DNA of 64,000 nt from Desulfurococcales archaeon (GCA_027067785.1 JAMOVL010000065.1:16086-80085), one strand, 5' to 3'; positions 20,940 through 25,029 are shown, numbered from the stretch's first letter. Numbers and translations are program-made. Notes: generated by a model from the sequence alone, not told the origin.

Positions 20940-22505
20940 ATGGAATTCAATCTAGTACTTAAAAAATTTAGGGCTGGCATGACGAGAATAGCCTACCTAT
21001 ATCCTTCCACATATGAGGCTATGCTTTCCAGTCTCCCAACACACATGATCTATTATCTAGCAAATAGTATAGACGAAGTTATCCTGGAGCGCTTCCACAT
21101 CCATAGGTTTCAGAGCGAAGAACCTCCACCGAGAAGCATTGAAACAGGCACTCCGCTCGACAAGTTTGACCTCATCATAACGAGCCTACATTACGAATTA
21201 TCAGTAATCGATCTATTAAGATGCTTAATAGCCGCGGGCATAGATCCGAGGAAAGACAGGAGGAAACAAGTAATTATAGCTGGCGGACCTGTCTCGATAT
21301 CCAATCCTATTCCTTATTCTGATTTTATCGATGCATTCATCATAGGAGAGATCGAGAATACAATACCACGCCTCATACATGACTGGGTTGAGACTAAAGA
21401 CAAGAAACAGTACCTGGAAAAAATATCTTCATACAGTGATGTATATGTTCCCGGCTATAACGATGGAGCTAGGAGATCTTATGTTGAGAGCCTAGATAAT
21501 GCCTTCTATCCTATTAGACAGATACAAAATGATGAGATCGAACCCGTCTATGGACGTGGTTTTTTACTTGAGACTAGCCGGGGATGTAGGTACTGGTGTA
21601 GATTCTGTATGGAGGGCAGGCTTTTCAAACCTTATCGTGTCAGAAGTTTCAATTTGTTAAAGAATCTTGTTGATAATGGGATAAGGCTTAACCGTGTTAA
21701 CAGGGTTATTACTTATTCGTTGTGTTTTCTGGGTAGTATTCATGAGAAAAGATTGTTAGAATACTTTGTTGAACAAGGGATTTCAGCCGTTATTCCAAGC
21801 CTGAGGATAGATCATATAGATAATGATGTACTTGAGCTAATCCGTATGCTTGGGCAGAGAACAATCACTGTAGCTCCTGAGTCGTTTCTAAATATGAAGA
21901 ACTGTGTGTTTGGTAAATATTGTGGTAAAGACCTACTTAGTAGTCTCGAACAAATTCTTGAGAAAGGCTTTGATCTTAAAATATATATGATAGTGGGCGT
22001 TAAGGGTATTGCAGAGAAGGAAGTTGAAGAAGCACTGCTGGTTGAAAGACTAGCTCGTAGAGCTAGGAGTATGGGAAGGAAGGTCGTTATCAGCGTTAAC
22101 CCGCTAATACCTAAGCCTAGGACACCGTTTCAATGGATAGGTATGCTTAGAACGGAAAGAATAAGATCTTTGATCAAGGCTTTAAAGAGTAGGTTGAGAA
22201 AGTATGCTGATTTTAGAGACTATGATATTAGATGGGCTGTGATGCAGGCCGCTATATCCCTTGCTGATAAGAACATATCGAAGACTCTTCTGGAAACAGC
22301 ATTGCAGGGTGGAGGATTGTCGGGGTGGAGGCGTGCGTTGAGAAGTACTGGCTTCAATATAGAGTATGTCTTTAGTGGTTACGATCCAGATGAAGAGCTC
22401 CCATGGTCTAAGATACTGATCGATGAGGGCCATGAAAGGCTTGTAAGGGGGGAATACGAGTTGTTGTTATCCCTATTAGGAGAAGCCCTTAGCGATCATG
22501 GCTAG
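20940..22505 (+). CDS. radical SAM protein with an N-terminal B12-binding-like domain
   Basis: ETSRGCRYWCRFCMEG is the CxxxCxxC cluster motif. The N-terminal ~190 aa resemble the B12-binding/TIM-barrel radical SAM architecture. 521 aa. Confidence 0.8.
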   Translation: MEFNLVLKKFRAGMTRIAYLYPSTYEAMLSSLPTHMIYYLANSIDEVILERFHIHRFQSEEPPPRSIETGTPLDKFDLIITSLHYELSVIDLLRCLIAAGIDPRKDRRKQVIIAGGPVSISNPIPYSDFIDAFIIGEIENTIPRLIHDWVETKDKKQYLEKISSYSDVYVPGYNDGARRSYVESLDNAFYPIRQIQNDEIEPVYGRGFLLETSRGCRYWCRFCMEGRLFKPYRVRSFNLLKNLVDNGIRLNRVNRVITYSLCFLGSIHEKRLLEYFVEQGISAVIPSLRIDHIDNDVLELIRMLGQRTITVAPESFLNMKNCVFGKYCGKDLLSSLEQILEKGFDLKIYMIVGVKGIAEKEVEEALLVERLARRARSMGRKVVISVNPLIPKPRTPFQWIGMLRTERIRSLIKALKSRLRKYADFRDYDIRWAVMQAAISLADKNISKTLLETALQGGGLSGWRRALRSTGFNIEYVFSGYDPDEELPWSKILIDEGHERLVRGEYELLLSLLGEALSDHG

Positions 22506-23555
22506 TTCTCCTATGTATGATATTAGTGCTAGTGATGATGCGAGCTCGCCGACTATTAGCGGGTTTATTTTACCACCGTTTATAACGCTGTATAGTTCTC
22601 TATTCATAATTGTTTGTTCCGCTTCTGAAATCGTATAGGGTAGAGCTACACGTATGTCTAATCCCAGCTTTAATCCTCTGAACCCGCTAATCAGAAAATA
22701 TCTTCTGATCTCACTTCTCAAAGCATACTCGGGCTTTATACCTATTGATAAATAGAATGATGTTAGTACTCCTAGTGTAACGGGTATTATCGAGTTGTCT
22801 ATGCCTCTCATGTTCTCTATGGCGTTATAGGTTTTCACTATCTCTGACTGGCCTATCCCTACAGATGAAAGTGTTAGTCTAGGTATAAATATCAATAATT
22901 TATAGTCAAGTGTGATATAGGGTGCTAGTATCGGTACCCTGGTCTCACCTATAGTCTTTACTAGTTCGTTGATATCGCCACTGGTAATCATTGATTTTAT
23001 TGCTTGGCAAGGCGCGGATTCTCCTATAAGGATTGTTTCAACGATTCCTCCTGATTCTCTACCGTAACAGAGTATGTGTAGTTTCTTGTTCTTAGATTTT
23101 AGAATGGACTCTATTTCTTCGCATTTTTCTTCTTTACTTATATTGAATAATCTTATCCAGCATTTATCGGTCTTGATACTGATTTTCGTGTTGCGACAGA
23201 TCGTTACTCCTAAGTCCATGGTCTCCATTAGTGCTGGATAAATAGATGATAATGGAACATATTTTTCTCCTCTAACAGTTTCACCCTCTAGTTCTATAGG
23301 CCCTATGATCGTTACCGGGACCTGTATAGCTCCAACGGGTCTGTAGGATATTCTCCCCTCTGTATCGACGAAATCGAGTATCGAGGAACCAGTAGCTGCG
23401 AGTGATATGCCTAGTTTTTTCTCAAAAAACTTTCTTCTAACTAGGGCGGCGAGGTTCTCGTTGTCGAGTTTTTCCTCTAGCTCTCTGAGAGCCTCGTCGG
23501 ATTCTCCTATTTCACTGAATATTTTCTGTATATCTTCATTGTTCCTTTGTCCCAA
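22476..23555 (-). CDS. HMG-CoA reductase-like protein, apparently degenerate (catalytic motifs not recognisable)
   Basis: VRRKFFEKKLGISL...RPVGAIQVPVTIIGPIELEGE...GEKYVPLSSIYPALMET parallels class I HMGR (RR.FLE..L...ENxIGxxxxPxGxAGPLxxxG...PxATTEGxLVAS). The ATTEG Glu and the DAMGMN motif are not recognisable, and GTVGGGT is reduced to SVINGGKI. The C-terminal GELASSLALISYIGELAMIAKG resembles the HMGR C-terminal helix. It overlaps the DUF35 gene by 20 nt. Confidence 0.55.
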   Translation of the reverse strand: MGQRNNEDIQKIFSEIGESDEALRELEEKLDNENLAALVRRKFFEKKLGISLAATGSSILDFVDTEGRISYRPVGAIQVPVTIIGPIELEGETVRGEKYVPLSSIYPALMETMDLGVTICRNTKISIKTDKCWIRLFNISKEEKCEEIESILKSKNKKLHILCYGRESGGIVETILIGESAPCQAIKSMITSGDINELVKTIGETRVPILAPYITLDYKLLIFIPRLTLSSVGIGQSEIVKTYNAIENMRGIDNSIIPVTLGVLTSFYLSIGIKPEYALRSEIRRYFLISGFRGLKLGLDIRVALPYTISEAEQTIMNRELYSVINGGKINPLIVGELASSLALISYIGELAMIAKGFS

Positions 23556-23964
23556 TTGATCCTATCACCGGTCTGTAAGCTATTGCGTAGTGAATCAGTC
23601 CTGCTTCGCGGTCTTCTTTTATTCTTCTGAGAACTGGCTCAACTATCATTCCTTCTTTTATTTCTTCTGGGAGGATATCGGTGAGGGGTGCTATGATATG
23701 CGTTTTTGTCTCTAGTGTTTCGAGCATTGCTATTATTCTGGGCCGTTGTTCTTCAAAGCCTTCTGGTGCTGGGTAGATTATTGTCCACGAGATCACTTTT
23801 GCTTTCTCGTTTTCAAGATAGTAGTCTTCTAGCTCATTTGATCCACAGTATCTACAGATATTTGATGGCGGGTAGTTTATACGGCCGCATTTAAGGCATT
23901 TCTTAGCGTAGAGTCTGTAGTGGCTGTGTCTTTCTCTCCAGTATCTGGGGATAGAGAACCTCAT
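23536..23964 (-). CDS. DUF35 OB-fold/zinc-ribbon protein (scaffold of the archaeal thiolase/HMGCS complex)
   Basis: CLKCGRINYPPSNICRYCGS zinc ribbon followed by an OB-fold-sized C-terminus. 142 aa. It sits immediately downstream of HMGCS. Confidence 0.8.
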   Translation of the reverse strand: MRFSIPRYWRERHSHYRLYAKKCLKCGRINYPPSNICRYCGSNELEDYYLENEKAKVISWTIIYPAPEGFEEQRPRIIAMLETLETKTHIIAPLTDILPEEIKEGMIVEPVLRRIKEDREAGLIHYAIAYRPVIGSIGTKEQ

Positions 23965-23970
23965 ATGGTC

Positions 23971-25029
23971 TCACCTTATACGCGTGATTATTCCTCTGAA
24001 CTTCGCGTAGGTGGCGTAATCAATCATGCATTTCCTGTTGATGTAATCGTCTACTTTTGGTGCTTTATCCTGTCTCTCAATGATTTTGTCAGTGACAACT
24101 ATGCTGTATGCATCGCTACCCGCACCGCTACCAAATGGTGCCAGAAGTATTCTCTGTCCTGGCTTCGCTATATCAAGGACCCTTGATAAGCCTATAAGTG
24201 CTGATGAGTTGTAGCTGTTGCCTATATACGGTGTTACTAGGCCCGGCAATACTTTTTCCTTGGGGAACCCGAGTCTTTTAGCTACTGCTAGTGGGAACTT
24301 ACCGTTTGGCTGGTGGAATACTGCGTAGTCGAAATCTGATACACGTAGCCCTGTCTGTTCGAGTAAGCCTTTAACTGCATTGATTATATGGTGGAAGTAT
24401 GCTGGTTCACCAGTGAATCCTTCGCCATGCAGTGGGTATGGCTGGTGTGCTCTACGCCAGAAATCAGGCGTGTCTGTTACGTAGGTGTAGCTTGCCTCGA
24501 ACACTGCGGCTGCTTCTCTGGCAGGGCCCGTTATGAGGGCTGTGGCGGCTGATGATGCCGTGAACTCTAGTACATCTCCCGGGTTTGCCTGTGCAGTATC
24601 GCTACCAATAACTAATGCATACTTTACAAGGCCTGAAGCTACCGCTCCTATGCTTATCCTTAGTGCTTCGCTCCCAGCTCTACAAGCGAATTCTAGGTCT
24701 GTAGCCATCGTATCTGGCGTTATGCCTAGGGCTTCAGCTATTATTGTCGCTGAAGGTTTTACAGCGTAAGGTTTTGACTCTGTACCGAACCATACTGCTC
24801 CTATTTCTTTCGGGTCTATTCCCGCTCTTAGGAGCGCATTGCGGGCCGCTTCCCAGCCCATTGTGACTGCGTCCTCGTCTCTCCCGGCAACGGCTTTCTC
24901 TATTACATTTAGGCCTCGCGGCGTTTCAGGAGCGAAGCCCCATAGCCTCGCGATCTCGGAGAGCGATAAACGCCAGCGCGGGATATAGGAGCCCCAACCA
25001 ATTATTCCTACACTCGGATCGGGACGCAA
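23971..25029 (-). CDS. archaeal hydroxymethylglutaryl-CoA synthase
   Basis: [14 protein letters not shown]...[23 protein letters not shown]...[21 protein letters not shown]...[13 protein letters not shown]...[11 protein letters not shown] matches the archaeal HMGCS pattern, including the active-site Cys context. 352 aa. Confidence 0.85.

Follow-up and report, generated by a model that had tools for sequence, protein, structure and literature searches.

In human 3-hydroxy-3-methylglutaryl coenzyme A (HMG-CoA) reductase (HMGR), the catalytic residues are Glu559, Lys691, Asp767 and His866, the cis-loop (residues 682–694) is essential to the HMG site, Ser565, Asn567 and Arg568 are among the residues that contact CoA, and the ENVIGx3(I/L)P strands form a dimer contact (PMC7503714). 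Archaeal class I HMGR (EC 1.1.1.34; TIGR00533, PF00368; structures 6hr7 and 6hr8) is the enzyme with which we compare protein X, the product of a gene on the minus strand of a 64,000-nucleotide stretch of DNA from a Desulfurococcales archaeon (GCA_027067785.1 JAMOVL010000065.1:16086-80085; hereafter the window, with positions counted from its first letter). The gene follows those for HMG-CoA synthase (HMGCS) and a DUF35-type protein. Protein X shares with the archaeal enzyme the fold of large (L) and small (S) domains, the N-terminal 120 residues and the operon position, but it is missing the catalytic Glu, Lys, Asp and His, the cis-loop, the DAMGMN and GTVGGGT motifs and the C-terminal flap. 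With class II HMGR (TIGR00532; 1qax) it has the superfamily fold in common (Z about 20); it derives from class I and not from class II, and its sequence signal is to TIGR00533 only. Our best explanation, to which we assign a probability of roughly 0.6, is that protein X is a dead class I HMGR retained under selection in a non-catalytic role.

Sequence identity of protein X

Protein X is a 359-amino-acid (aa) open reading frame (ORF) with a TTG start (22476–23555, minus strand), identified from its translation, its homologues, its predicted fold and its ratio of nonsynonymous to synonymous substitution rates (dN/dS). The class I profile TIGR00533 matches residues 18–119 only (43.1 bits against a cut-off of 441.8, E = 2.7e-11), and PF00368 scores 18.9 bits, under its cut-off of 27. 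When a profile of 11 family sequences was compared with 15 true class I enzymes using hhalign, residues 5–120 aligned with a probability of 99.8 and 35% identity, and this local profile–profile comparison gave no alignment of protein X outside those residues. A sequence search of the PDB found the HMGR of Methanothermococcus thermolithotrophicus (6hr7; residues 27–139, E = 4e-13). Residues 5–120 (23196–23543, minus strand) are thus the sole part recognizable by sequence as class I HMGR in the hhalign, TIGR00533 and 6hr7 comparisons; they span the N-domain helices and the first L-domain helix, together with what is left of the ENVIG dimer-contact strands (IGAxQxPxxxxGP).

An initial annotation of the window, made from the sequence alone, had traced the N-terminal third of this ORF to class I HMGR, and these matches bear it out. 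Rather than a lack of significant similarity to HMGR, an outcome for which that annotation had allowed, we found homology in the N-terminal sequence and an HMGR fold beyond it. The annotation had put the protein at about 50 aa shorter than a typical archaeal HMGR; measured against the class I enzymes of relatives (416–425 aa), the difference is 55–65 aa.

A search of 1.84 billion representative sequences returned only two full-length relatives of protein X at E < 1e-30, its other matches covering residues ~5–125 only, and a word-indexed search recovered ten, with 42–94% identity. Among them is Smar_1337 of Staphylothermus marinus F1, which is 45% identical over 99% of the length and has the same gene order and a TTG start overlapping the DUF35 gene; the two proteins come from different genera, protein X from an uncultured sister genus. 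Copies in public metagenome-assembled genomes (MAGs) are 94% and 81–83% identical to protein X. The full-length relatives are annotated as 'hypothetical protein', with the exception of P0011, which bears an automatic Joint Genome Institute (JGI) name of HMG-CoA reductase. More than 90 columns are invariant in the family, in which identity between genera is 42–47%. HMGR neighbours of protein X in the ESM Atlas are weak (score 0.83), and a BLASTP comparison with the class II reductase of its own genome is marginal (E = 0.037). Profile searches of the window proteins gave no thiolase match for protein X, and we found no paper on the family in a literature largely restricted to openly accessible journals.

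Predicted fold

An AlphaFold2 model built on the 11-sequence family alignment has a mean predicted local distance difference test (pLDDT) score of 74.6 and a predicted template modelling (pTM) score of 0.76. All of its top Foldseek matches are HMGRs (6hr8_B, E = 3e-14), as are the top 48 structure entries for the model, and the first match that is not an HMGR scores Z = 7.7. VIA-align matches residues 71–358 to residues 528–861 of human HMGR (Z 22.9, root-mean-square deviation (rmsd) 4.2, 262 residues aligned) and residues 73–359 to residues 68–397 of the archaeal 6hr7 (Z 22.6, 268 residues aligned). The model has the L domain with an inserted ferredoxin-like S domain that defines the HMGR fold, and the structure comparison found no thiolase fold. 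Because the fold search and VIA-align both match HMGR, the C-terminal two thirds, which are placed by fold search and forced global alignment only, are a very diverged HMGR body and not a foreign domain. The structure prediction proposed in the initial annotation thus gave an HMGR fold that matches the human enzyme over residues 71–358 and the archaeal one over residues 73–359.

Loss of the catalytic equipment

Invariant features of the 15 true class I enzymes of relatives are E105 (in ATTEG), DAMGMN, D235-K236-K237-P238, G-Q-D311, GTVGGGT and H406, which probably correspond, judging from motif identity, to the equivalent residues of the human enzyme. In protein X, the ATTEG position reads S-S-I-Y-P, and Tyr106 at the place of the catalytic Glu (human Glu559; codon at 23238–23240, minus strand, checked in the sequence) is invariant in the alignments of the 11 family members. 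The G-Q-D position reads G-I-K. Its Lys274 (codon at 22734–22736, minus strand, also checked), within G-I-K-P-E-Y, takes the place of the catalytic Asp (human Asp767), is likewise invariant and is placed identically by forced global hhalign and by MAFFT. In human numbering, the Lys735 position is an invariant Glu247, the Asn755 position is Gly262 and the CoA-contacting Arg568 is Leu115. The catalytic His is replaced by Phe358, the penultimate residue: forced hhalign and MAFFT set the C-terminal Phe358-Ser359 (22479–22484, minus strand) where class I enzymes carry the His (AGHL) and the flap, and the C termini of the 11 family sequences hold no conserved His.

Neither a D-K-K motif nor a conserved Lys is found near the cis-loop position in the protein X family, the cis-loop being an 8-residue deletion in MAFFT and a run of unconserved residues in forced hhalign. 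DAMGMN is absent from protein X in both alignments. In place of L-P-S-L-E-V-G-T-V-G-G-G-T, protein X has L-P-Y, a 4-residue gap and T-I-S-E-A-E-Q (about residues 308–314). The I-G-A-x-Q-x-P-x-x-x-x-G-P part of the dimer-contact strands is kept and invariant, with E-N changed to S-Y, and forms a stretch of low pLDDT in the monomer model.

On the evidence of its Glu, Lys, Asp and His positions, its NADPH motifs and its profile score, protein X is not a functional class I HMGR. The initial annotation had read SSIYP in place of ATTEG and had found DAMGMN unrecognizable; both readings hold in the alignments (hhalign and PDB 6hr7 for the first), and inspection of the four catalytic columns, which it had advised, found none conserved, so that protein X is not the ordinary HMGR. 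It had also taken INGGKI for a remnant of GTVGGGT. Forced hhalign and MAFFT reject that candidate: the glycine loop aligns with the 4-residue deletion and T-I-S-E-A-E-Q, and INGGKI aligns with the later LGVxGGG loop.

Protein X occupies the reductase slot of the operon

We compared the regions around the class I HMGR genes of relatives, in which the window proteins were located by tblastn. Seven genomes from other families of the order have the gene order HMGCS–thiolase–DUF35–class I HMGR. In the host family, four genomes (G006, G007, G012 and G015) have HMGCS–DUF35–class I HMGR followed by a convergent B12-binding radical S-adenosylmethionine (SAM) gene; in G021, the region reaches the contig end. 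The window and all protein X carriers have HMGCS–DUF35–protein X and the same convergent radical SAM gene. Because this order equals that of relatives with an intact enzyme, protein X lies in the reductase slot, and synteny makes it the positional descendant of the operon's own reductase. We therefore regard it as very probable, with respect to both identity and history, that protein X descends in place from the class I HMGR of the mevalonate operon.

The initial annotation had assigned the gene to the thiolase slot. In relatives, however, the thiolase lies between HMGCS and DUF35, whereas protein X lies after DUF35, and the slot between HMGCS and DUF35 is empty across the host family, including the members with an intact class I enzyme. 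Its broader proposal, that a degenerate class I homologue unable to act as the ordinary reductase is linked to HMGCS and DUF35, is upheld.

One cluster of the survey departs from the host-family arrangement. Locus L065 (genome G011, genus g8) has HMGCS–thiolase–DUF35, and its HMGCS is 57% identical to that of the window and sits on a very long branch. This cluster may have been replaced or may be deeply diverged.

A class II reductase is encoded elsewhere in the genome

In the host assembly (1.13 Mb in 78 contigs, 81% complete), PF00368 has a single full match, a protein on contig C32 (374 bits). This protein is a class II HMGR: it scores 463 bits against TIGR00532 (cut-off 260), aligns end to end with Pseudomonas mevalonii 1qax (E = 1.6e-132) and keeps every class II catalytic motif, with ENVIG, EE-T-S, DAMGAN, T-H-N-K-G-I-M-N-G, G-Q-D and G-H-M-x-L-H-A-R-N all in place. 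Contig C67 encodes a thiolase of the archaeal type (NF004720, 451 bits). The canonical reductase and thiolase that the initial annotation had suggested seeking elsewhere in the genome are therefore both present. Its description of protein X as an HMGR paralogue did not survive in the sense of a paralogue of a co-resident class I enzyme, the resident reductase being class II. Its overall proposal, a non-catalytic or neofunctionalised HMGR paralogue in the thiolase slot linked to the early mevalonate steps, accordingly stands as to a degenerate class I homologue associated with HMGCS and DUF35, and falls as to paralogy and slot.

Class I and class II HMGRs coexist in seven genomes (G006, G007, G012, G015, G021, G030 and G034). 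The catalytic columns are intact in their class I copies, and their class II copies exceed the TIGR00532 cut-off, so that the two reductase classes seem to have been redundant for a long time within one archaeal order. A single in-frame TGA occurs in each of two class II genes, one in a protein X carrier (G077:C108:2407-3570) and one in G012 (G012:C4:7552-8709), and could reflect sequencing error, a pseudogene or recoding.

Distribution and history

A survey of the host family covered 62 genomes in 22 genera. Full-length protein X occurs in five genera: g1 (that of the window), g2, g19 (Staphylothermus), g35 and g36. Another five genera have true class I HMGR, in each case alongside class II. 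Every protein X carrier checked has a class II enzyme and no true class I enzyme. In an order-wide search with TIGR00533, further dead copies were not separable from class II cross-hits among the matches listed.

Two further genera have intact ORFs of 255–276 aa in the same slot, which keep only the N-terminal ~90–120 residues of class I HMGR. These short forms (loci L050–L055, in G010, G045, G044, G046, G058 and G059) lie between the DUF35 and radical SAM genes, end in a hydrophobic C-terminal helix and have a TTG start at five of the six loci checked. In two genomes, the DUF35 and radical SAM genes lie 67 and 11 nucleotides (nt) apart with no gene in between, and a third has unrelated small ORFs in that place.

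In a tree of HMGCS and DUF35, the class I carriers are unresolved at the base of the host-family clade, and one derived clade (SH-aLRT support 93) contains the carriers of protein X and of the short forms, along with three of the four gene-loss genomes. A tree of the N-terminal 125 residues, which carries a long-branch warning, recovers protein X (95/97) and the short forms (99/97) as monophyletic groups, both apart from class I (99/98). The approximately unbiased (AU) test does not reject a group that unites protein X, the short forms and family class I enzymes (p = 0.23), but it does reject one that joins protein X to class I and leaves the short forms out (p = 0.02). Trees and test fit, without proving, one in-place inactivation that was followed by retention, shortening or loss. 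It could be argued instead that protein X is an ancient paralogue or a transferred gene, as in the free tree both it and the short forms have long branches and fall outside class I; we do not favour this explanation, given that an in-place origin agrees with the synteny and is not rejected by the AU test. Membership of protein X in the class I lineage accordingly has the support of synteny and is not rejected by the AU test, against a long-branch placement outside class I in the free tree.

Three further observations concern neighbouring cases. In G020, the place of the relic is taken by ORFs of 112 and 150 aa (L064:2033-2789, minus strand), the first of which has a nucleotidyltransferase-like G-S...D-V-D-L motif that suggests an inserted toxin–antitoxin-like pair. 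In genus g32, the class I HMGR of locus L049 (G035:C21:33124-34330) is encoded in two overlapping ORFs of 109 aa (profile positions 4–96) and 327 aa (83–402), and G280 and G282 of the same genus likewise give two matches; either the split is conserved, or a frameshift may have parted the N-terminal module from the catalytic body. Finally, a public MAG labelled 'Spirochaetes bacterium' holds a 366-aa member of the protein X family (P0106, RKX82855.1) on a contig of 3,482 bp, which is probably mis-binned, since P0106 shares a 90% cluster with Staphylothermus sp. proteins.

Purifying selection on protein X

Within g1, the dN/dS of protein X is 0.16–0.27 and is similar in both halves of the protein; the values for its g1 neighbours are 0.05 (HMGCS), 0.08–0.11 (DUF35) and 0.11–0.13 (radical SAM gene). 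Pairs from Staphylothermus, g35 and g36 give 0.11, 0.04 and 0.06 for protein X. Over all pairs, HMGCS spans 0.03–0.07 and DUF35 0.08–0.19, compared with 0.04–0.27 for both halves of protein X, and the short forms give 0.14 and 0.37. In comparison against the window sequence, protein X has a dN of 0.095 with saturated synonymous sites. No complete copy, among 13 genomes of five genera, has a broken reading frame, the gene in one further genome being in two pieces that are split across two contigs, and the TTG start overlapping DUF35 is seen in g1, Staphylothermus and g2.

Protein X is under purifying selection. The dN/dS values, the intact frames and the retained TTG start with its overlap together argue that it is not a pseudogene, and it is presumably expressed from the HMGCS–DUF35 messenger. 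As expected of a pseudoenzyme, protein X is homologous to an enzyme, has lost the catalytic residues and is kept by purifying selection. The short forms are a selected relic of still smaller size.

Dead copies recur in other lineages

Other Thermoprotei and Acidilobaceae MAGs encode proteins of 316–361 aa that match TIGR00533 in the N-terminal third only. Those of the P0028 type occur in the Acidilobaceae genus g46 in the order HMGCS–thiolase–DUF35–dead HMGR, with a class II enzyme elsewhere in the same genomes; other Acidilobaceae genera keep a true class I enzyme. A model of the P0028 type (pLDDT 68.9) likewise folds as an HMGR, with 263 residues aligned to 1hwi_C at Z 14.5 and an rmsd of 5.8. 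The dead copy of the Acidilobaceae is an independent event.

These dead class I copies (P0028/P0027, P0016, P0021 and P0026) have in common with protein X the N-terminal third, the operon slot, the size, the loss of the His flap and co-resident class II enzymes, to which the P0028 type adds the HMGR fold. They differ from it in having no detectable sequence similarity past residue ~120 and in carrying other residues at the old catalytic positions. The short forms of 255–276 aa, on the other hand, group with protein X.

The recurrence raises the possibility that the class I HMGR of Thermoprotei has a second, non-catalytic job resting on its N-terminal third and fold, for example as a structural member of an assembly with thiolase, HMGCS and DUF35. 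We regard this as doubtful; if true, it would explain why dead, selected copies have repeatedly been retained in the operon slot after a class II takeover.

Interpretation and alternative explanations

The history that we propose begins with an ancestor of the Staphylothermus group that would have had a class I HMGR in the operon and a class II HMGR encoded elsewhere. The class II enzyme would have taken over the reductase reaction, after which the operon copy would have lost the catalytic Glu, Lys, Asp and His, the cis-loop, both NADPH motifs, the CoA-contacting Arg and the C-terminal flap, while keeping the HMGR fold, the N-terminal domain and part of the strands that make the dimer contact in class I enzymes. 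The dead copy would still be translated from the HMGCS–DUF35 messenger and held by purifying selection in five genera. Protein X, probably as a dimer, may now assist the proteins of HMG-CoA synthesis in a structural or regulatory capacity.

A partner role is favoured because the strongest and most widely shared constraint is on the N-domain and the dimer-contact strands, because the independent dead families share the scaffold and not the pocket residues, and because the contacts with cofactor and CoA are gone. Taken by itself, the proposal that protein X has such a role has, in our estimate, slightly less than an even chance of being correct.

Several points weigh against the reading of protein X as a selected, non-catalytic partner. 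Its protein partners, oligomeric state and expression are all putative. Some of the best-conserved blocks (P-L-x-S-I-Y-P-A-L-M, Y-N-x-x-E and G-x-K-P-E-Y-x-L-R) surround the old active site. In two places the charge there is reversed, Glu247 standing for Lys735 and Lys274 for Asp767 of the human enzyme, which would also fit a remodelled ligand pocket. Whatever the role is, it seems dispensable, since sister lineages have shortened the gene to 255–276 aa or deleted it. Additionally, residues past 120 were mapped by forced profile and MAFFT alignments and secondary-structure register, and forced hhalign and MAFFT disagree on the registers of DAMGMN and the cis-loop, although each motif is absent in both.

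The main rival is that protein X is a neofunctionalised enzyme or ligand binder, in which the HMG pocket has been rebuilt around Tyr106, Glu247, Lys274, Glu276, Tyr277 and Arg280 for another early isoprenoid metabolite. The residues at the old active site are indeed invariant across five genera, their replacements are specific and not random, and purifying selection equals that on the neighbouring enzymes in three of four genus pairs. However, protein X has lost the cis-loop, the Arg that contacts CoA and both dinucleotide motifs. None of the independent dead families (types P0028, P0016 and P0021, and the short forms) has these pocket residues, and the gene has been shortened or lost in sister lineages. 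On balance, we consider a rebuilt pocket unlikely.

Slow decay of a functionless relic, made redundant by the class II enzyme, is considerably less probable. It would account for the graded series at one locus, from intact class I through the 360-aa form and the 255–276-aa forms to nothing, and for a dN/dS in g1 somewhat above that of the neighbours. A decaying gene would not, however, be expected to keep intact frames in all complete copies from 13 genomes of five genera, a conserved TTG start and DUF35 overlap, and, where synonymous sites are nearly saturated from genus to genus, dN/dS values of 0.04–0.11 for three genus pairs; an independent lineage also keeps a dead copy of similar size.

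That protein X replaces the thiolase, or stands in for it within the thiolase–HMGCS–DUF35 complex, is very improbable. The cluster does lack a thiolase gene and protein X is translationally coupled to DUF35. The position after DUF35 is nevertheless wrong for a thiolase, host-family members with an intact class I enzyme also lack an operon thiolase, the dead copy of the Acidilobaceae coexists with a thiolase within the operon, and the genome of the window has a thiolase on contig C67, the fold of which protein X does not share. An HMGR that still works with an unusual active site, for which the fold, the operon position and the JGI annotation of P0011 might speak, is scarcely credible when not one of the four catalytic positions or the cofactor motifs has escaped replacement or deletion, scores fall far below curated cut-offs and each carrier checked has a complete class II enzyme.

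The locus is a natural example of enzyme displacement, class II for class I, in an archaeal core pathway, with the stages visible at one position: both enzymes intact, the operon copy dead but selected, shortened, and deleted. Automatic annotation can mistake the dead copy for the reductase of the organism, as one public record does. If the structural or regulatory role is correct, the early steps by which archaea make lipid precursors would involve a partner that has so far gone unrecognised. Small size, thermostability and conservation make the family accessible to study with recombinant Staphylothermus marinus proteins.

The gene cluster in the window

The first gene of the cluster, HMGCS (23971–25029, minus strand), scores 565.8 bits with NF003274 (cut-off 244) and 515 bits with TIGR00748, and its product is 74–95% identical to that of the first cluster gene in relatives. 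The second encodes the DUF35-type protein, a zinc ribbon with an oligonucleotide/oligosaccharide-binding (OB) fold (23536–23964, minus strand; PF12172, E = 3.4e-10; PF01796, E = 5.7e-11), and its position is identical in all relatives examined. The initial annotation had described HMGCS, DUF35 and the 359-aa ORF as three co-directional minus-strand ORFs at these coordinates, with a 20-nt overlap between the last two. We recovered the same layout and identities, and the protein X ORF overlaps the DUF35 gene by 20 nt from its TTG start. Direct reading of the sequence also reveals, 9 nt upstream of the TTG, a Shine–Dalgarno-like GGTGA motif (23565–23569, minus strand) that lies within the DUF35 gene at its 3' end and may act in the translational coupling of protein X to DUF35.

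On the other side, the convergent radical SAM gene used as the synteny anchor (20940–22505, plus strand) matches PF19864 and PF04055 and resembles TIGR03960 (187 bits, below the cut-off). It overlaps the 3' end of the protein X gene by 30 nt, and it is kept as a neighbour of the mevalonate cluster across nearly the whole host family.

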